A stretch of DNA of 64,000 nt, taken from positions 443-64,442 of the forward strand of contig JAANXH010000043.1 of the NCBI GenBank assembly GCA_018263355.1, given 5' to 3'. A program made the position numbers and the translations under genes. The notes beneath the pieces are model-generated. The model made no database searches. It had not been told where the DNA came from and worked only from the letters and a program-made list of their open reading frames with translations. The DNA comes from Candidatus Woesearchaeota archaeon (GTDB lineage Archaea > Nanobdellota > Nanobdellia > Woesearchaeales > JAGVZT01). Positions 1,404-31,851 of the stretch are shown piece by piece; the stretch's first letter is position 1; each line of letters opens with the position of its first letter.

Positions 1404-1814
1404 GTAAAGAAAATCTGCTGTTCAGAGCTAATCTCACTCCCCTTTGGTCCGTTCCTGAGTTGCTCTGGCAACCATACTCACTTCATTACATTTCGTTCCA
1501 GGGTTGCTCTGGCAACTTATCTCCCACCTAAATGTCGGAAAACAAAGTTTTCTGATCATCATCAGAAATTTAAAATTTCTGAGAGGTGGGAGCTTTTACG
1601 CTCTTCACTTTGATAAGCAGATATACTCACTAACGTTCCAGACATTTAGCTGTGCTAAATGTAAGTTCACTTCGTTCGTTACCTTTAGCAAGCTAAAGGT
1701 TTTCAGACTCCAGAAGCGAGGCTTATGGATGCCGAACAAAACACGAATGTGTGGAGTGACTGCATCATAATGCTACGGGCTAAAGCCCGGGGATTTAGAC
1801 CCATCGCATTCTGA
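1404..1814 (-). mobile_element. Non-autonomous palindromic element copy A (411 bp), IS200/IS605-like ends
   Basis: Shares terminal and core blocks with 8180-8317 and, inverted, with 31281-31802. Subterminal hairpin CGGGCTAAAGCCCG; GTAAAGA at both junctions; no transposase ORF. Confidence 0.7.
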
Positions 1815-1870
1815 GTAAAGATTATTTTATAAAATGTGGGTCATGGAATAAATATTGCAGGTGAGTAAAA

Positions 1871-4630: not shown

Positions 4631-5127
4631 ACACAACCAAGAAAGGAGCAATGCTTGAAATTTATGTTAAGCAATTGTTCAAAGACTTGTGTAAGCTAAA
4701 GGTTAGGAGAAATGTGCAGTATAGATGCAAGGGAGTTTTGACTAACAAAAACAAAAGAGCTCAGATTGATGTTGAATTTTGGGATCTTAAGGGTAAAACC
4801 ATTGTGGAATGTAAGTATTATGGTTCAAGTAAGGTTTCAGTAACTGATGTTGATGAGTTTTACCAGAGGTCAAAACTTGTCAGACATACTAGAAAAATAA
4901 TGGTTACTAACACATGTTATACACAAGGAGCAGTGAACACAGCAAAAGAACATGGAATAAGACTGATTGATGCAGACCAATTAAAGAAAATGGATTATGA
5001 ACGATTAAGTTTAGTAGGAATGATAAAAGACAGACTTGGCAAAAGAAAAAGTCTTGATGAACAGATAAAGGATGCTGACCTAAGGAATTATGGAGAATAC
5101 TACTCAGCAAAACAATATTTAGTGTGA
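4627..5127 (+). CDS. Mrr-like (PD-(D/E)xK) restriction endonuclease domain protein
   Basis: QIDV...IVECKYY catalytic motif; downstream V...DV..F, IMVTN, YT..A..A..GI.LID pattern typical of Mrr_cat. Confidence 0.75.
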   Translation: MNTTKKGAMLEIYVKQLFKDLCKLKVRRNVQYRCKGVLTNKNKRAQIDVEFWDLKGKTIVECKYYGSSKVSVTDVDEFYQRSKLVRHTRKIMVTNTCYTQGAVNTAKEHGIRLIDADQLKKMDYERLSLVGMIKDRLGKRKSLDEQIKDADLRNYGEYYSAKQYLV

Positions 5128-6170
5128 GGAGGATGAAAATGCAAGAAGAATTAGTTCAAGAAACAATGGTTCATGGAACAGATTTTGATTTAGATAGATT
5201 TGAACAAGCTAATAGTGAAGTTGAACGTCATGTTATGCATGGCGCATCTGAAAGCTCAACAATAAGAGCTGAGGTTGATGAATTAAATCAAGAAACAATA
5301 CAAACTGCAGCTGAGCAAAGAACAGAGAGTCCAATAGTTCAATGGTTTTTGAAAACATATTGGACTCTAACAAATACTGATGCTGTCCAGCTAACAAAAA
5401 AACTATCTAAGGACATAGAGGGAGTTTTAAAGCAGAGCAAAAAAGACCTAAGTTCAATTGTTACTGACATAAACAGAAGCAGAAGGGAGGAGGAAAAGCA
5501 TTTGGAAGATCTTGGAGATCTTGCACAAACTCATAGAACTTTTAAGTATGCAAAACAAGGGTATAGGCAACAGATAGATGAAATTGATTCTTTAGTTGCA
5601 GCCAGATCTAATGGTGGAAATACTCAATCCCTTGAATTAAAAACCTTACCTGAGAAATTCTATGAATTTAGTTTAAGGGAGCTTAAAAGGACAAGAGGAG
5701 AAATTGAAACAAAAATGATGACAACAGACATTGAACTGCAATCTATATATAGTGATATCAGAATTATTGGGGGACAAATCAAAGCAGCTGAAAAGACTAC
5801 TTTGAGACATATTTCACAGTATAATCAAGCATTGTCAAATAGAAATAGGACATTAGAGCATCATATAAAAGTGTATGAGCCTCAATATGTTAAATTAATA
5901 GAAAGACAAGCAAAAATTGCTGAAACAGAAGAACAATCTGAGATTGTAATTAACCAATACCTAAAGGTTTGCGAGTCTTTAGTAAAAGGAGTGGATGAGA
6001 GAAGACACTTATTGTTGTCCTCCTACCAGGCACAATTTGATGATACAAGAGATGCAGAAAGAGCAAGAAAAAGTATTGACAAAGCATTTGATACTCAGAT
6101 TGAAAATGGGAGAATTGGTGGAGAAAAACTACAAAGTGATGCTGAAGCTGTCATGAATCAATATTTGTAG
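5124..6170 (+). CDS. Coiled-coil hypothetical protein
   Basis: 348 aa, E/K/Q-rich helical composition; likely start ATG about 5133 after GGAGG. Confidence 0.7.
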   Translation: MRRMKMQEELVQETMVHGTDFDLDRFEQANSEVERHVMHGASESSTIRAEVDELNQETIQTAAEQRTESPIVQWFLKTYWTLTNTDAVQLTKKLSKDIEGVLKQSKKDLSSIVTDINRSRREEEKHLEDLGDLAQTHRTFKYAKQGYRQQIDEIDSLVAARSNGGNTQSLELKTLPEKFYEFSLRELKRTRGEIETKMMTTDIELQSIYSDIRIIGGQIKAAEKTTLRHISQYNQALSNRNRTLEHHIKVYEPQYVKLIERQAKIAETEEQSEIVINQYLKVCESLVKGVDERRHLLLSSYQAQFDDTRDAERARKSIDKAFDTQIENGRIGGEKLQSDAEAVMNQYL

Positions 6171-6202
6171 TTTTTTATTTTTTTATTTTTTTTGGAGGAA
6201 AA

Positions 6203-7621
6203 ATGATAAAACTAGAATTAACTCAAGAGCAAATTGAAAAAAGATCATTTGATTTGGAAAGCAGGATTAATGGGTTTTCTTTTAAAATAAAAGATAAGTT
6301 AATTTCAGCTGGAAAAAAGCTAGAGGACTCAAGTTCTGAAAGCGCAGTCTCAGCTATTTATTCTGGTTTCTCCATATTGGATTTGATTTGGCATTCAGTT
6401 GTAAAAACCCATAGAAAAGAAAGTATTGTTGGCATATTAACTGCTGCATATATCGGGGCTGATTATGGTCTGTACAATCTTACTGCCAAAAAAACAGGTC
6501 GAATTAAATCAATGTCAAGAAATGTTTTTTCTGGTAAACAAATTGATTTTAATCAAACTTATCCTTATCCACTAGATGATTTACTTGATATATATTCCAA
6601 TGGAGTTGACGAGTACAAAAATGCTGGGCTGTCAAATATCACAGAACAATTCTTTAACTGGGTTAAAAATAGAGTTATTGTAGAGAGTAGCAAGTATCCT
6701 GAAATAAAAGAGCAACTACAAGATGTTAGAGGTAATATTGACCAGATTTATTCTTTTAGAGGTATTTCTTCAAAAGTAAAAAGGAGTGTTGATAAGTCAA
6801 ACAAACTTATCTGGAATAAATTTGGAGGATATCATAATGTGGTTGATTACCTTAAAACACAGGCAAAATTTATTCAAAATTTTGATTATTTGATCTCTTT
6901 GGATGTTTTAGATCATGGAGATCTTTTACCCAAAGCTACTATTTTACATGGTCCTCCAGGTACTGGAAAAACAACCTTATTAAGGATATTTTGCAATGAA
7001 GCAGGTCTTCCATATGAGATGTTTAGCTGCAGTGAAATAGGAAGCCAGTATGTTTTTGGAAGCTCAATAAATATTCAAAATTATTTTGATGAAGCTGCTA
7101 GTTATATTAAAAGAAAAGAAAGTAAATTTGCATTAGTTGTTATTGATGAACTTGATGCACTTGGAAGAAAACGTGCCTATAAATCAAATGGAAGCAATGA
7201 AGACAATAAACTTGTAACAACAATATGTGAGAATTTAGATGGTCATCTTGCAGTAGATGGAGTTTTAGTGTATGGATTAACAAATATGGGAGATGTGCTT
7301 GATCCTGCCTTAACTCGACCTGGAAGGTTTGAAACATGGCTTGAGATGGGTTTTCCAAATAGAAAAGAGCTTAATGAGATATTCAGTATATATCTTGCGG
7401 GTAGGGGAGTTGGAAAAGTTGATGTTGAACATATAATCAACAAATATGTGGATTTAAAGTGGACTGGAGCTCTTGTTGAGAAAGTTGTAATTGATGCAAA
7501 AAGAGCAAAACTAGATAATCATCTGGATGGACAAGAACAATATTTGATTAATACTGATGATGTTTGCAAGCAGATTGAATTATATCAAAGAAGAGATCTT
7601 AATAAAAAATGGCTGGAATAA
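6203..7621 (+). CDS. AAA+ ATPase (classical CDC48/FtsH/Vps4-type single module) with unknown N-terminal domain
   Basis: Walker A GPPGTGKT, Walker B VVIDELD, SRH TN...LDPALTRPGRF. Confidence 0.85.
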   Translation: MIKLELTQEQIEKRSFDLESRINGFSFKIKDKLISAGKKLEDSSSESAVSAIYSGFSILDLIWHSVVKTHRKESIVGILTAAYIGADYGLYNLTAKKTGRIKSMSRNVFSGKQIDFNQTYPYPLDDLLDIYSNGVDEYKNAGLSNITEQFFNWVKNRVIVESSKYPEIKEQLQDVRGNIDQIYSFRGISSKVKRSVDKSNKLIWNKFGGYHNVVDYLKTQAKFIQNFDYLISLDVLDHGDLLPKATILHGPPGTGKTTLLRIFCNEAGLPYEMFSCSEIGSQYVFGSSINIQNYFDEAASYIKRKESKFALVVIDELDALGRKRAYKSNGSNEDNKLVTTICENLDGHLAVDGVLVYGLTNMGDVLDPALTRPGRFETWLEMGFPNRKELNEIFSIYLAGRGVGKVDVEHIINKYVDLKWTGALVEKVVIDAKRAKLDNHLDGQEQYLINTDDVCKQIELYQRRDLNKKWLE

Positions 7622-9456
7622 AACAAAAGAATTGGTTTGAAGTTCAGAGTATGCTAGCTAATGATGATGACCTTATTAAAAAAGTATGTAGTGGGTTTTC
7701 TTCTTACTCTGAGCAGATAAATAGTATAAAAGATCAACCTCTAAGTAAATCGTCTGTTGACAAGATTGTATATCTCACACAAGAGTTAGACGAGTGTTTT
7801 GCAATTCCAGAAAAGTACAGCTGGGTTTATAACCTGGACGATATTGTATTAGGAGCATCTGAAAAAATAAATAAGATTGGTCAACTAAAAGATGAGTTTT
7901 TCAATTCTTTGGATTATTTTTTTGATGAGTTGTCACAGGGATGGGATTCTGCAAAAAAAAGGGTTGAATCTTGGGAGAGAAAATATGGGATAGAAGATCT
8001 ATTAGATTCAAGAGATAAACTAAATTCATTTGCAGAAACATATGATTTATTATTTACACGATTAGGTCAGGATCATCCTATTCTTAATGCACGAATGATC
8101 AGTCAAATTCAAGATTATGTTCAATTTTTAGATGATTTTTCAAATGTGGATGTAGTTTACTTTGAGTTTAAAAACAAATGTAAAGAAAATCTGCTGTTCA
8201 GAGCTGATCCCCCACATAAAGGTGGGAGCTTTTACGCTCTTCACTTCGACACGCAGATTTTCAGACTCAAAAGTCCTCGCCCTAAAGGGCGGGGCTTTAG
8301 ACCCACGGACATTTTGAGTAAAGAACTTGATTCTAAAACAAAACAAGAGCTAAATGTATTAGGCAGAGAATTGAAAAAAATTAGAAAGACCTATGACAAA
8401 ACTTGTGCAAAACATAGGCCTTTTTTTGACAAGCTTAAGCAAAACTCAATATTTGCATATAAGGAGAGATTTATTGATATGCAAGAGCTTGACAAAAGGA
8501 TTGATTATCTTAAGAAAAATGTACAAAATATAGATATTGCACAACAGGATTTAGATGAATGGATTGATTATTATCAACAAACTCTGGATTATTTATCTGA
8601 AGAAAATGAAATTGAAAAAAGTCACATTGAATGGGTTGCTGACTGCAGTACAACAACTCCAAAGATAGTAGAGGATTGGGAAAATAATATATATGTTGCA
8701 GAAAAGATTGGACAAGTAAGTGCATTAAGAAAAGTTGTACATAATAGAGTAGAACAAGAATTAAATAGAATTAAAACTTATTTGGATTCAAGTTTAGATG
8801 ATTTTTCTGACTTGCCTAGTGATACAATTGATCTTGAAGAAAGACTAGAAGAATTACATCAATTCAAAATAATGTACAAACTTATTGGTGAGCCTACACT
8901 TGAGTGTGAAAAAGTACATGAGAAAATCGAGGCCAAGATCAGACAGTCCAAAATTCCCAAAACAATTGCTCAAACTACAAAAAAACCAAGCTCAGTACAA
9001 CAAGATAATATGCCCTATTGGAAACCAATTATTAGAAATCAGAGTGGATATTTTGATATTGCAACCCATTTATTAACAATTGGTTTTCCATCAGGCACAT
9101 ACATGAATATTATGAATACTATGCTTGGAAAAAACAATCAAGGTAGCTGGGCAGAAAAACTTAGAACAGTAAGCCAAGATCTGGAAGATTTACCTATTGC
9201 AGGTTCTCTTCAAGATTTAGATTATATGTATCATTTAGAATATGCTCTTAGGGAAAGTATGAATAGAGGAAATATGGATCATTTAGTTAGCAGAAATAGT
9301 CAAGGATGGAAATTAGCACATCAAGTTTTAAATCAATTAAATAAATACATTTCCATAAGTGAGGACAACATAGGGTTATCTGCAAAACAAATTGAGCTTA
9401 GAAAGCCTGTAACTGGTCCAGAAAACACATACAACCCCAGTTTGGCACTGTATTAG
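7609..9456 (+). CDS. Helical/coiled-coil hypothetical protein carrying a 46-aa in-frame element insertion
   Basis: 615 aa ORF; codons at 8180-8317 derive from the repeat element. Confidence 0.7.
   Translation: MAGIKQKNWFEVQSMLANDDDLIKKVCSGFSSYSEQINSIKDQPLSKSSVDKIVYLTQELDECFAIPEKYSWVYNLDDIVLGASEKINKIGQLKDEFFNSLDYFFDELSQGWDSAKKRVESWERKYGIEDLLDSRDKLNSFAETYDLLFTRLGQDHPILNARMISQIQDYVQFLDDFSNVDVVYFEFKNKCKENLLFRADPPHKGGSFYALHFDTQIFRLKSPRPKGRGFRPTDILSKELDSKTKQELNVLGRELKKIRKTYDKTCAKHRPFFDKLKQNSIFAYKERFIDMQELDKRIDYLKKNVQNIDIAQQDLDEWIDYYQQTLDYLSEENEIEKSHIEWVADCSTTTPKIVEDWENNIYVAEKIGQVSALRKVVHNRVEQELNRIKTYLDSSLDDFSDLPSDTIDLEERLEELHQFKIMYKLIGEPTLECEKVHEKIEAKIRQSKIPKTIAQTTKKPSSVQQDNMPYWKPIIRNQSGYFDIATHLLTIGFPSGTYMNIMNTMLGKNNQGSWAEKLRTVSQDLEDLPIAGSLQDLDYMYHLEYALRESMNRGNMDHLVSRNSQGWKLAHQVLNQLNKYISISEDNIGLSAKQIELRKPVTGPENTYNPSLALY
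8180..8317 (-). mobile_element. Minimal element copy C (138 bp), in frame within a CDS
   Basis: Same core as copies A and B; hairpin CTCGCCCTAAAGGGCGGG; GTAAAGA at 8180 and 8318; removal restores ...NKCKELDSK.... Confidence 0.75.
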
Positions 9457-9765
9457 TGTGACTGATGGTGTTCAGAATTCGTCTGTGCCGTGAATGACAT
9501 GAAATGACCTTTTTTGTTATGAATCCATGGCCAGGCGTAGTTTTTCTGCAGGAAAAAAGGAGTAGGATTTTGGACATCATCAGTTTGTAGCACTGCCCTC
9601 AGTTTACATGGCAACCAGTTTTATCACTAAAAAAGAAAAACATATATATATGTAATATATATCTCTAAATATAAGAGGTGTATATGTTTTTGGTGAATAT
9701 ATGCCAACAAAAATTGTTCATAACAAGACTTATTCTACCAAAAAGAATGGCGCAAGGGGAGGGGT

Positions 9766-11004
9766 ATGAGACAAGAAGATTTAATTGGTAAAGTTATAAG
9801 TGAATACAAAGTAGAGGACAGGTTGACGTCATCTACTCATTCTGCAATATTCCTTGTGAGACATATTAGAATGGATCATTGGCGTAGAGTTATGAAAACT
9901 CTAAATAAACATTTGACAAGAGATCAAAGATTCATGAGGCAAATGAAAAATGAACAAAATATTGTTGGTGAGTTTTCTGATTCTGCTTTAGAATTTAATG
10001 TAAGACCTTATGATGTTGGAGTAATTAAAAATACAGAAACTCACTGGGACAATAGCCCATATATTATTATGGAATATGTTGAGGACGGAAGTTTAAAAGA
10101 AAATTCTCAGATTAGTTTGGAACAAAAAGTTTTTTGTATTGCTCAGGCTACTAGAGGTCTAGACGCTGCTCATGACGAGGGTGTGATTCACAAGGATTTT
10201 CACGACGGAAATGTTTTACTTGTGATGAAAAAGAATCAGATTATTAGTGTTAAAGTTTGTGATTATGGTGTTGGAGCAAATATGGATGATACTGGTTATT
10301 ATGGAGGATATTCTAAGGCTCCAATTTTATACAAAGCACCTGAACAAACAACTGGGGGTAAAGAGAAGGGATTAAGAGAAGGAAAACACACTGATGTATA
10401 TCAGGTTGGAGCAACTTTGTTGAACATTACCAGTGGTCTGCAAATCACAGAAGGAGTAATTCAAGAGTTATACAATGGGTATAAAGATGTGCCAGAGCCA
10501 TTAAAAGATATTATTAAACAATGCATTAGTTTTAATCCAAAAAATCGTCCAAGTCTTAAACAAGTAAGAAAAACTCTACTTAATTTAGATGAATTAGAAA
10601 AGGAAACTAAATTTGCTTCATTAATTGAAAAAGCATCACAAGAATTACATGGCATTGGAAATAGGTATAAAAGAAGATCTTGTAATACCTTAACTGGTAA
10701 AGATATTGATAATTTGTTTAAAATCAGAAATAGATATTACAAAAAATGGGGAAGAATGGATTATACTATTCCAGTAGGCTCAATTGAAGCAATTATTAAT
10801 AGGCTTTTAGAAAGAGATACAATTATAATGGGTGAGTTTGCAGCTCCTTATTGCAATGAAAAATTAAAAGTTGTACATGCACCAAAAAGTAAGAAACAAA
10901 GAGAGAAAGCTGAGCAATATAGTAAGGCACTACAGAATTGGCAAAAACATCTTAATAGAACCATTTATGTTGATCCAGCATCTTGGAAAATGAATATAAA
11001 ATGA
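9766..11004 (+). CDS. Hanks-type Ser/Thr protein kinase
   Basis: VMK lysine, alphaC Glu, HKDFHDGN catalytic loop, DYG, YKAPE, TDVYQVG. The glycine-rich loop is degenerate. Confidence 0.85.
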   Translation: MRQEDLIGKVISEYKVEDRLTSSTHSAIFLVRHIRMDHWRRVMKTLNKHLTRDQRFMRQMKNEQNIVGEFSDSALEFNVRPYDVGVIKNTETHWDNSPYIIMEYVEDGSLKENSQISLEQKVFCIAQATRGLDAAHDEGVIHKDFHDGNVLLVMKKNQIISVKVCDYGVGANMDDTGYYGGYSKAPILYKAPEQTTGGKEKGLREGKHTDVYQVGATLLNITSGLQITEGVIQELYNGYKDVPEPLKDIIKQCISFNPKNRPSLKQVRKTLLNLDELEKETKFASLIEKASQELHGIGNRYKRRSCNTLTGKDIDNLFKIRNRYYKKWGRMDYTIPVGSIEAIINRLLERDTIIMGEFAAPYCNEKLKVVHAPKSKKQREKAEQYSKALQNWQKHLNRTIYVDPASWKMNIK

Positions 11005-13049
11005 AAAAAACTTTTGAGGATATAAGTCAGATTATTCAAGACCAAAAGAGAAGTTTGAAGGGCAAACCTCTTGAGTATTGTATTGGCATAGTTGGTCTTG
11101 GAAAAGTTGGCAGAGAGGTTTATACCCAGATGCTTAACACACGCAGAGTAAATGAAATTCAACTTTTTACAACAAAACCCGATAGAACTGGACAGTTTTT
11201 AGAACGGCAAAATATCGCGCACACACATACTTCTGTAATTGTAAATGATTTTACTGAACTTAAACATCAACATGAAAATTTAGATATTGCAATACTTACT
11301 GTTGATCAAAGTAATTACTTAAATAGATTTCCAGACATATCAAGAGATGATGTTTTGGAAAGTAATGTTGATTTACTTGTTAAAACAGGAAATTTGCTTA
11401 AAGATTATAAGTCTTCAGTTATTGTAGTTACAAATCCTGTTGATTTGGCTGCATATATTGTCTGTGCTAATGCTGGAATTTATCCCGAGCAAGTAACTGG
11501 GCTCAGCCACACAGACCTGGCTAGATTCAGAAAAAATATTAGGGATGTATTTATTGGCAATGGTTTGGACCCAAAATTTGTAAATATGATTGATGTTGAT
11601 GTGTATGGTCCACACTCCACAGAAGCTACATACGTATTTCAAAATTTTGCTAATTTACCTAGACAGGTTTTTACATTTTTATCAAACGAAAACATATATT
11701 CCAAACTAAAAGAAGCAGCAGCACAATATGCTAATACTCAGTTTGAATTAGGCTCTGCACTAAAAGAAGGTACAGAGAGAGAAACTGCTGTTTCAATAAG
11801 AGAGGTAGTTGAAGCAATTATCCAAGAAGATAAGAGAGTTGGAGCTTCTGTTTATATAAACCCAGCAGAGATTGGTGTTAAAGGAATTATCCCTGGTTTA
11901 TTTATGGGCTATCCCACCAGATTTGTGAGTGGCGTAGCTTCTCCAATTCTTGGTAACTTTATTGATGAATCTGATCAGGCAAGAGTAATAAAAGGATATC
12001 ATACTCTTGAGTCAAAAATAATTAGATTACATGAATCAGGAATAATACCAGATTATGTTGAAAGGAGTTTTGATGTTGTAGACATTTATGAAACTAAACA
12101 GACAAAAGTTAATTTACCTAAGTTAAATATTCAGTTTCAAGTTATTGGAGCATGTGCTAATCAGGTTATTAAATGGCCAGATATGGATAATCCAAATTTA
12201 AAAGAACCTATTGATCTTGAACAGAGAGTTACTGCGTTTAGCTGTGCTGATATTGATGAAGAATTAAATTTTATTGTAGGCCATAGGAGAGGAATAACTA
12301 TACTGAGTAAATCAAAAAAAACAGATTATAAATATGAATCTAATCATCGGGTTAGAAAAGTAGGTTTGATAAAAACAGATAGAACTTATTTAGTAGGTGC
12401 GAATTCAAGTAGTGTTTTTGTGTTTGATAAGGATAACCCAGATAGTCCTGTATTTGATATCAATGGATTTAATCATAAATTAGAAAGTTTTGAATTAGGA
12501 TATTACAAAGATAGACCATATTTATGGGTTGTAGGAGATGGAGTTAGTGAATATAGTTTTTTGGAATCAGAAAAATTAAACTTTTATGAGGTTGGAGGTG
12601 TTGAAAAAAAGATCAAAGCACTATTAAAAATAAGATCAAAATTATATGGTGCGAACTTAAATAAAGTGGTTAGATGGAATTTGAATTCTCCTGGTTTGCC
12701 AAGATGGGAATCTGATGAACTTCCAAGTATATCTGTAAGTTGTATTGAATATGCTGAGATTAATGGTTGTAAATCTTTATTTGTTGGGACAGGTAATCCT
12801 GAAGTTTATAGAATTGATGCAAATTCTGGGGAATTAATTAAAGTTTATCAGAAAAAACAAAGTAATCTTAATGGTACTGGACAAGTTAAAGTTTTGGATA
12901 ACAGATACTTACTAACTGCTGATAGAAATATGACTGGTCATACATATGAGTCCGCAATTAATATTTGGGATATTCATGATAAAAAACCAAGTATTGTTTT
13001 GCCAACAGGTTTTAATTCTGGCATAAAGGGTTTGAAGGTCTTAAAATGA
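11001..13049 (+). CDS. LDH/MDH-like dehydrogenase fused to a C-terminal beta-propeller (WD40-like)
   Basis: GIVGLGKVG, SRDD..N, VTNPVD, TDLARF, GPHS in the N-terminal half; beta-rich repeats ending ..RW, ..IWD in the C-terminal half. ATG 11001 overlaps the kinase stop (track start 10983). Confidence 0.75.
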   Translation: MKKTFEDISQIIQDQKRSLKGKPLEYCIGIVGLGKVGREVYTQMLNTRRVNEIQLFTTKPDRTGQFLERQNIAHTHTSVIVNDFTELKHQHENLDIAILTVDQSNYLNRFPDISRDDVLESNVDLLVKTGNLLKDYKSSVIVVTNPVDLAAYIVCANAGIYPEQVTGLSHTDLARFRKNIRDVFIGNGLDPKFVNMIDVDVYGPHSTEATYVFQNFANLPRQVFTFLSNENIYSKLKEAAAQYANTQFELGSALKEGTERETAVSIREVVEAIIQEDKRVGASVYINPAEIGVKGIIPGLFMGYPTRFVSGVASPILGNFIDESDQARVIKGYHTLESKIIRLHESGIIPDYVERSFDVVDIYETKQTKVNLPKLNIQFQVIGACANQVIKWPDMDNPNLKEPIDLEQRVTAFSCADIDEELNFIVGHRRGITILSKSKKTDYKYESNHRVRKVGLIKTDRTYLVGANSSSVFVFDKDNPDSPVFDINGFNHKLESFELGYYKDRPYLWVVGDGVSEYSFLESEKLNFYEVGGVEKKIKALLKIRSKLYGANLNKVVRWNLNSPGLPRWESDELPSISVSCIEYAEINGCKSLFVGTGNPEVYRIDANSGELIKVYQKKQSNLNGTGQVKVLDNRYLLTADRNMTGHTYESAINIWDIHDKKPSIVLPTGFNSGIKGLKVLK

Positions 13050-25414: not shown

Positions 25415-25424
25415 GATTTCACCC

Positions 25425-25512
25425 CATTACATTCAGTTCCTGAGTTGCTCTAGCAACTAATCTCACTTCGCTTTGCTTCGTTCGTGAGTTGCTCTAGCAA
25501 CTAATCTCACTT
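25425..25512. repeat. Stand-alone tandem 44-bp-period hairpin module
   Basis: TGAGTTGCTCTAGCAACTAATCTCACTT at 25441 and 25485; the same module at the same period lies inside elements A (1459/1503) and B (31639/31683). Confidence 0.8.
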
Positions 25513-31143: not shown

Positions 31144-31851
31144 ATGGAAAGTCAAATTTGATGAGGAGAGCCAAAAGCAATACCTGATTGGTGAGCGAGA
31201 CCTCAACAATCGTAAGAAGCTATGCAAAACAGTTTGTCTTCTCTAAATTGGTATTAAAATTTGCTTGCTAACAATTTCACTCAGAATGCGTTGGGTCTAA
31301 ATGTCAGGACTGTTCGTCCTGATCATGCTCAGGAAGCTACGCTTCCCGACAGCCCCTGGCTTATCTCACTAGCGTTCCTAACACATAAATCCTAGATTTC
31401 TGGCTTTAGTCAGTAGCATTATAATGCAGTCACTTTACATATTCGTGCTATGTTCGGCATCCATAAGCTTTGCTTCTGGAGTCTGAAAAGCTATCGCAAG
31501 ATAGCTGCCGAGTGAACAAAGTGAACGAATGCATCTGCTTGTCAAAGTGAAGAGCGTAAAAGCTCCCACCTCTCAGAAATTTTAAATTTCTGATGATGAT
31601 CAGAAAACTTTGTTTTCCGACATTTAGGTGGGAGATAAGTTGCCAGAGCAACCCAGGAACGAAATGTAATGAAGTGAGTATGGTTGCCAGAGCAACTCAG
31701 GAACGGACCAAAGGGGAGTGAGATTAGTTAGAAGTGTAGCTTATAACCTTGGAATGTAGCGAAGCGGAATGAGTACGGCTCTGAACAGCAGATTTTCTTT
31801 ACAAACTGGCAAGCGAACAATATATTTTGGCAAACACATCAAACTTAACTC
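31144..31851 (-). ncRNA. Candidate structured RNA (about 185 nt) interrupted by element B; identity unknown
   Basis: TTTAAATA box about 30 nt upstream of G31851; a 15-bp terminal helix with three G-U pairs (31837-31851 with 31149-31163); nested helices across the insertion. Confidence 0.4.
31281..31802 (+). mobile_element. Element copy B (522 bp), inverted relative to A and C
   Basis: About 170 bp nearly identical to the reverse complement of copy A, plus shared termini (TCAGAATGCG.TGGGTCTAAA ... GCTCTGAACAGCAGATTTTCTTTAC) and extra hairpin inserts. Confidence 0.75.

Follow-up and report, generated by a model that had tools for sequence, protein, structure and literature searches.

One ORF of a Woesearchaeota archaeon carries 138 nucleotides that related genes lack and that belong to a repeat family with other copies in the same genome. 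This locus raises the question of how such a segment came to lie within a protein-coding gene, and of whether the 46 codons that it adds are translated or are removed at the RNA or DNA level. The locus was analysed within a window, by which we mean the whole stretch of 64,000 nucleotides under study, and against the remainder of the source assembly, which comprises 1.17 Mb in 60 contigs, is 99.96% complete and includes an archaeal SSU rRNA gene. The explanation that we favor, with a probability of roughly 0.75, is that the segment is a recent insertion of an element resembling palindrome-associated transposable elements (PATEs) and moved by a Y1 transposase, that insertions of this element into genes are mostly lost by selection, and that the present copy is translated as a disordered loop. 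Coordinates of the relevant features are collected in Table 1.

Table 1. Window coordinates of the host gene, the insert and its parts, and two long copies of the same family
Feature	Positions	Strand	Remarks
Host gene, 615-aa all-helical protein of a small conserved family	7609..9456	+	Overlaps the upstream AAA ATPase gene at the stop of the latter
Inserted element, short form of the family	8180..8317	+	Lengthens the host ORF by 46 codons; homologs gapped there
Left copy of direct repeat GTAAAGAA	8180..8187	+	Includes the conserved RTAA boundary tetranucleotide
Right copy of direct repeat GTAAAGAA	8318..8325	+	Made up of GTAA, the conserved 3' terminus of the element, and AGAA of the host
Domain 1, closing stem GAAAATCTGC / GCAGATTTTC, encloses hairpin 1	8185..8262	+	Fold, compensatory changes
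Hairpin 1, TAAA loop on a GC-rich stem, then GCTTTTAC	8209..8228	+	Resembles IS200-type end hairpins
Domain 2, closing stem AGACTCAAAAGTCC / GGACATTTTGAGT, encloses hairpin 2	8263..8319	+	Fold, compensatory changes
Hairpin 2, CCTCGCCC-TAAA-GGGCGGGG, followed by CTTTAGAC	8275..8294	+	
Long family copy, ~415 nt, intergenic, extra modules nested in loops	1404..1818	+	
Long family copy, ~525 nt, intergenic	31277..31802	-	

The insert and its host gene

The host protein lacks Pfam domains, and a fold search with it gave no meaningful structural match. A preliminary description of the locus had claimed that the 138-bp copy is free of stop codons in the host frame; this is correct, and translation of the ORF gives exactly the 46-residue peptide that was quoted, from which the tryptic peptide GGSFYALHFDTQIFR is predicted. 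The insert has a GC content of about 50%, compared with 32% for the genome. Its folding energy of -54.6 kcal/mol compares with -35.2 +/- 3.7 kcal/mol for shuffled sequences (z = -5.2), and none of 200 shuffles equalled it.

A word-based search for homologs recovered only the host protein itself and GlmS of the same genome, the latter through the shared insert alone. An exhaustive HMMER search recovered 22 distant homologs with 28-38% identity. All 11 of the homologs that were aligned have a gap exactly over the 46 inserted residues while both flanks align; two of them carry two extra residues. One of these 11, P0004, comes from a sister genus and is the syntenic ortholog, as it occupies the same position in the gene order AAA ATPase, homolog, kinase, and Ldh_1_N protein. 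The host family is patchy, being present in five of 151 genomes of the order.

An 8-nucleotide direct repeat bounds the insert, whose limits can slide: removal of any 138 nucleotides that start between positions 8180 and 8188 yields an identical product, ...FKNKCKELDSKTKQEL.... The preliminary description had predicted this product and had called it seamlessly helical. The predicted sequence is indeed obtained, but the site corresponds to a turn between helices. AlphaFold models of the host protein and of the insert-free ortholog P0004 were built from the homolog alignment, and both are confident. In the ortholog model, the site follows residue 164 and falls, with confidence, in the turn between helices 137-163 and 171-195. 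In the host model, residues 193-236 lack secondary structure and have a pLDDT of 25-48, compared with about 90 to either side of the insert. The models thus suggest that the insert most likely adds a floppy, disordered loop of 46 residues to the host protein.

The gene cluster at window positions 5124-13049 is common to two genera (compare L212 in G001). It contains the AAA ATPase, the helical host protein, one or more Ser/Thr protein kinases, and a large Ldh_1_N-domain protein; together these genes resemble an uncharacterised system of several genes that occupies an accessory island. An unrelated repeat of about 155 nucleotides (9443-9598) begins just 5' of the host stop codon (9454-9456) and continues downstream; about nine more copies, 81-94% identical, occur in the genome, and contig depth at this repeat is very high in the metagenome runs. 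Elsewhere in the assembly, the SSU rRNA gene (G000:C59:27644-29462; L001 1501-3319) carries about 340 nucleotides of inserted sequence, possibly an intron, because it spans 1819 nucleotides compared with the 1478 positions of the model.

A widespread family of structured elements

The insert is not a chance feature, for related copies occur in the window and 16 complete copies are found genome-wide. These 16 copies range from 140 to 658 nucleotides and have common ends, in that all of them start with (G/A)TAAAGAAAATCTGC and finish with CATTCTGAGTAA. The short form of the element comprises 137-138 nucleotides of inserted sequence, and the long copies consist of this short form with additional hairpin modules placed within its loops. 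Many partial copies sit at contig ends. The closest sister copy of the insert, on contig C8, is 97% identical to it, which indicates that the insertion at 8180-8317 is young.

Copies from five genomes share a common fold of two domains, each closed by a long-range stem, and compensatory changes are found at 16 of its 42 base pairs. Hairpins 1 and 2, one in each domain, are alike: each has a TAAA loop on a GC-rich stem, followed by a GGGG-CTTT tail. When a covariance model derived from these copies was run on 401 genomes of the order, 119 of them proved to contain the family, as did 95 of the 258 genera; the matches are mostly 135-143 nucleotides long. Rfam 15 has no family that matches within the window (the best sub-threshold score is 18.7 bits, compared with a cut-off of 80), and we found no paper that describes the family in Woesearchaeota. 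A scan of the genome contigs with a 15-base pattern for the element was discarded as too unspecific, given chance matches in bacteria.

The modules nested in the loops of long copies include palindromes built around GTTGCYAGAGCAAC (window positions 1431-1523 and 31639-31726). The same module is free-standing at 25416-25508, and the genome contains 19 such palindromes. In Haloquadratum, PATEs are targeted by small repeats that these modules resemble.

Probable relation to IS200/IS605-type transposons

The properties of the family are suggestive of a particular mode of movement. The 138 nucleotides would represent a recent DNA-level insertion of a non-autonomous, noncoding, hairpin-rich mobile element that most probably moves as single-stranded DNA through an IS200/IS605-type Y1 (HUH) transposase supplied in trans, inserts adjoining an RTAA tetranucleotide (TTAY on the other strand), and persists in a genome that presumably no longer encodes such a transposase.

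In the IS200/IS605 elements IS608 and ISDra2, the Y1 HUH transposase TnpA recognises subterminal hairpins, there are no obvious inverted repeats, and the target of IS608 is TTAC. The present element likewise has subterminal hairpins, the recognition elements in IS608 and ISDra2, and no obvious inverted repeats, and it adjoins a specific tetranucleotide that reads TTAC, the IS608 target, on the complementary strand. It differs in that it contains neither tnpA nor tnpB. RTAA precedes the 5' end of every copy examined.

The hairpins provide a further connection. An IS200 end hairpin located beside tnpA in the congeneric genome G004, CCCAACCTAAAGGTTGGGG, is identical to hairpin 1 of the family at 17 of 19 positions, with compensatory changes at the other two. 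More generally, GC-rich hairpins with TAAA loops are about 25-fold enriched within 350 nucleotides of tnpA genes relative to background. Among 301 genomes of the order, 103 carry tnpA, G004 being one of them. Presence of this gene is associated with that of the element across the 301 genomes, with an odds ratio of 2.9 (P = 4e-5) that is confounded by phylogeny. A local alignment of the 8180-8317 copy with the whole flanks of the G004 insertion sequence did not score above shuffled sequences, and no full-length insertion sequence with the exact ends of the element was found. The resemblance of its hairpins to the ends of IS200-type transposons makes it probable that the element is a PATE-like passenger and that a Y1 transposase of the IS200/IS605 type moves it.

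Whole-genome scans for Y1 transposase and TnpB found neither in the 99.96%-complete source genome, so that the long copies encode no Y1_Tnp or TnpB ORF. A TnpB guide RNA (omega or reRNA) was rejected as an identity for the element since TnpB is missing; the lone weak zinc-ribbon match is a TFS/RpoM-like protein of 118 aa.

The lack of tnpA in the source genome is also consistent with a movement of DNA that does not involve Y1, namely a cut-and-paste MITE that duplicates TA, TAA or RTAA, or recombination between a short homology and the element's own end. RTAA is found at both ends of most copies, so that insertion may duplicate a short target. The first base of RTAA agrees between the two ends in 14 of the 16 copies that could be scored. 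Three copies have direct repeats of 7, 8 and 14 nucleotides, and the ends show a weak complementarity (AAAAT...ATTTT). However, comparison of the ends finds this complementarity to extend over 5-6 nucleotides, with nine of 17 positions matching, and reveals no convincing terminal inverted repeats. The two copies of RTAA can differ even inside one subfamily (C50:15186, G001), and three copies in G087 have no matching 3' repeat. Together with the resemblance of the two internal hairpins to IS200 end hairpins and the association of the element with tnpA, these observations make movement by such a route unlikely. A classical MITE in particular fits poorly, since clear inverted repeats are missing and the end repeats vary from 4 to 14 nucleotides and are absent in G087.

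The longer direct repeats are observed in several places. The window copies have direct repeats of 8 and 7 nucleotides, and the 3' flank of another copy (L004 / L184; G004:C1:20229-20421) repeats the first 10 nucleotides of the element, AGAAAATCTG, which results in a direct repeat of 14 nucleotides. An extended target preference or self-targeting is a possible origin of these repeats.

Copies within genes

Two of the 16 complete copies lie within long ORFs: the copy at 8180-8317, and a 183-nucleotide version in glmS. By comparison, 82% of GTAA/TTAC sites genome-wide are in ORFs of at least 120 aa, and the probability of finding two or fewer genic copies by chance is 2.6e-9. Part of this depletion could be caused by a preference in insertion rather than by selection. 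The two genic copies share their orientation and their element frame (KENLLFRA...FYALHFDTQIFRLKSPRPKGRGFRP.DILS), which is the sole stop-free sense frame of these copies; in other genomes, just 29-45% of 31 family members are free of stops in this frame. About one third of copy lengths are divisible by three, which is the chance expectation and reveals no bias toward multiples of three. The 137-nucleotide copies of the source genome are all intergenic.

The glmS copy has a nearly nucleotide-level empty site. The ortholog in G001, which is 70% identical, reads ATA GGT GAA TTT where the filled site reads ATA GGT AA[183 nt]T TTT, so that the insertion is an exact gain of 61 codons at GGTAA^T. GTAA occurs once at the empty site and twice at the filled site. 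The insert is located between residues ~56 and 69 in the numbering of E. coli GlmS.

A third in-frame case is found in the sister genus, where a 138-nucleotide copy (G001:C6:4211-4349; L006 / L185) follows codon 2-3 of a gene for a secreted or surface protein of 547 aa and places 46 residues before the signal peptide. A TTG near the end of this copy could serve as an alternative start codon. In G087, a copy on contig C221 (L054 547-683) interrupts an apparent ORF of 250 aa out of frame and with a stop codon; the interrupted ORF has no Pfam match, and the split gene is putative. This copy is 280 nucleotides from an IS200-type tnpA gene, and at least eight nearly identical copies in G087 suggest recent activity. 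In several genomes (L185, L195, L199, L202 and L207), the first TAA of the element is the stop codon of the upstream gene, and insertion at or beside TAA stop codons seems to be common. Copies in G290 and G389 that appeared to be read through were rejected as genic insertions, and are upstream leaders of a dehydrogenase gene.

The depletion of genic copies and their confinement to the open frame argue for a filter imposed by selection and not for splicing. A DNA transposon would be expected to leave such a pattern if most of its insertions into genes are purged and the survivors happen to keep the reading frame at a permissive site. Selection would thus eliminate most genic insertions, and the copy at 8180-8317 may have survived because it belongs to a subfamily of 138 nucleotides, a multiple of three, because it landed in the stop-free sense frame, and because it hit a turn between helices. 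Since length, open frame and helix turn are all permissive, the ribosome probably reads through the insert, and the resulting protein would have a disordered, basic loop of 46 residues. We infer that the insert is translated and tolerated.

An open frame is no proof of a working protein, because the insertion is young. Perhaps, then, the insert is translated but inactivates its host, such that the gene is a young pseudogene-in-waiting in an accessory island whose frame is open merely through recency. The 97% identity of the nearest sister copy fits such a recent event, as do the patchy distribution of the host family and the lack of a known function for the host protein. Against these points, the insert lies in a turn between helices and has confidently modelled structure on either side, and the other 569 codons are intact in a preserved operon context. 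The same element is also tolerated in glmS, and the filled allele is the sole one observed in four metagenome runs from two studies. Inactivation of the host protein is for these reasons quite unlikely.

Proposed removal at the RNA or DNA level

The preliminary description had offered removal of the element from RNA or DNA as an option. The corresponding proposal is that a fold conserved across about 95 genera directs removal or skipping, such that the host protein and GlmS are both made without extra residues. The insert would be lost by excision from mRNA, whether at a relaxed bulge-helix-bulge or guided by another structure, or by ribosome bypass, in which the ribosome hops between the repeated AAA-GAA codons, as it does at the GC-rich 'byp' inserts in yeast mitochondria and in T4 gene 60. 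The compensatory changes that support a conserved RNA fold, the identical 8-nucleotide boundaries of the 8180-8317 copy, and the presence of a sister copy within glmS, which encodes a conserved housekeeping enzyme, are all compatible with this idea. If it were true, a hitherto undescribed class of intervening sequence, small and mobile, would exist in archaeal protein genes.

Several searches for the signals of such a process were negative. A bulge-helix-bulge scan over all 138-nucleotide offsets gave as its best candidate a 4-bp center with flanking helices of 0-1 bp. An archaeal intron of the cbf5 type was rejected, as the two 3-nucleotide bulges and 4-bp helix are absent from the junctions; a spliceosomal-type GT...AG intron was rejected because no 138-nucleotide interval starts with GT and ends with AG; and Rfam has nothing to suggest a ribozyme, an intron, or another known RNA family. 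Metagenome contigs enter the insert from both flanks and contain only the filled allele, and no contig with the empty allele was found in the four runs from two studies (among X1-X5). Similarly, an empty allele of the C8 sister copy was not found in X1-X4, four runs of one study.

The distribution of copies bears on this question as well. An element that is spliced or bypassed would need neither an open frame nor a particular length, and its genic copies would not be depleted. Genic copies are in fact strongly depleted, and the two in this genome have an open frame and a length divisible by three, a pattern that fits translation and disfavors removal. The boundaries of the glmS copy repeat GTAA only, which also counts against removal. 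To our knowledge, 138 nucleotides far exceed any translational bypass, which counts against that variant. Removal at the RNA level is unsupported, and is disfavoured rather than refuted; that either protein is made without the added residues is highly improbable.

Comparison with known elements

PATEs are palindrome-associated transposable elements of Haloquadratum walsbyi that derive from IS200/IS605-type transposons (PMC3119063), and they are mechanistically the closest known system. Like the present element, they are archaeal, too short to encode a transposase, and without clear terminal inverted repeats. Both have two similar palindromes near their termini that resemble IS200/IS605 ends, a conserved terminal oligonucleotide, and heterogeneous cores in which other small repeats are nested, and both persist where the transposase is missing. 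In contrast to PATEs, the element studied here occurs in a different phylum (the DPANN Woesearchaeota), has an additional long-range stem that closes each half, and lacks a cognate full-length insertion sequence with the same ends among those found.

Rickettsia palindromic elements (RPEs; Ogata et al. 2000/2002, summarised in PMC10969869) are inserted in frame into unrelated protein genes at permissive sites, where they contribute a peptide and leave the protein unbroken, and the preliminary description had suggested that the 138-nucleotide element is an archaeal analogue of them. This suggestion is appropriate insofar as the element is palindromic, occurs in many copies, and is found in frame in a real gene. 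Both are palindromic repeats of ~100-150 bp in a small AT-rich genome, and in the host ORF and in glmS the peptide appears to be gained at a structurally permissive site. The analogy fails with respect to frequency, since in-frame copies are exceptional (two of 16) compared with nearly half of the copies in some RPE families. Moreover, an open frame and a length divisible by three are traits of one subfamily here and do not extend to the family, and the element is modular and nested. The host is an archaeon, the comparison is by function and not by sequence, and the likeness to RPEs is a functional analogy only.

Intragenic MITEs of bacteria, such as ERIC, BOX, QMITE1 and the Anabaena MITEs, occasionally fuse a small structured repeat in frame with an ORF (PMC10969869). 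These MITEs differ from the present element in having terminal inverted repeats and target duplications, neither of which is clearly present here. The in-frame insertion is of a known kind, its mechanism would be ordinary, and the element family is apparently uncatalogued.

Interest in the locus is raised by the breadth of this family and by the second in-frame copy in glmS. Insertions of this type have rarely been documented in archaea. The host gene provides a clean case, with an exact gap in homologs, a site that the models place at a helix turn, and a predicted disordered loop. A structured element of ~140 nucleotides is present in roughly a third of the sampled Woesearchaeales genomes, where assemblies are broken at its copies and the annotation of genes and proteins can be misled. 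In-frame insertion of small hairpin transposons into proteins, for which Rickettsia and some other bacteria have been the main source of examples, on this evidence extends to archaea with very small genomes.
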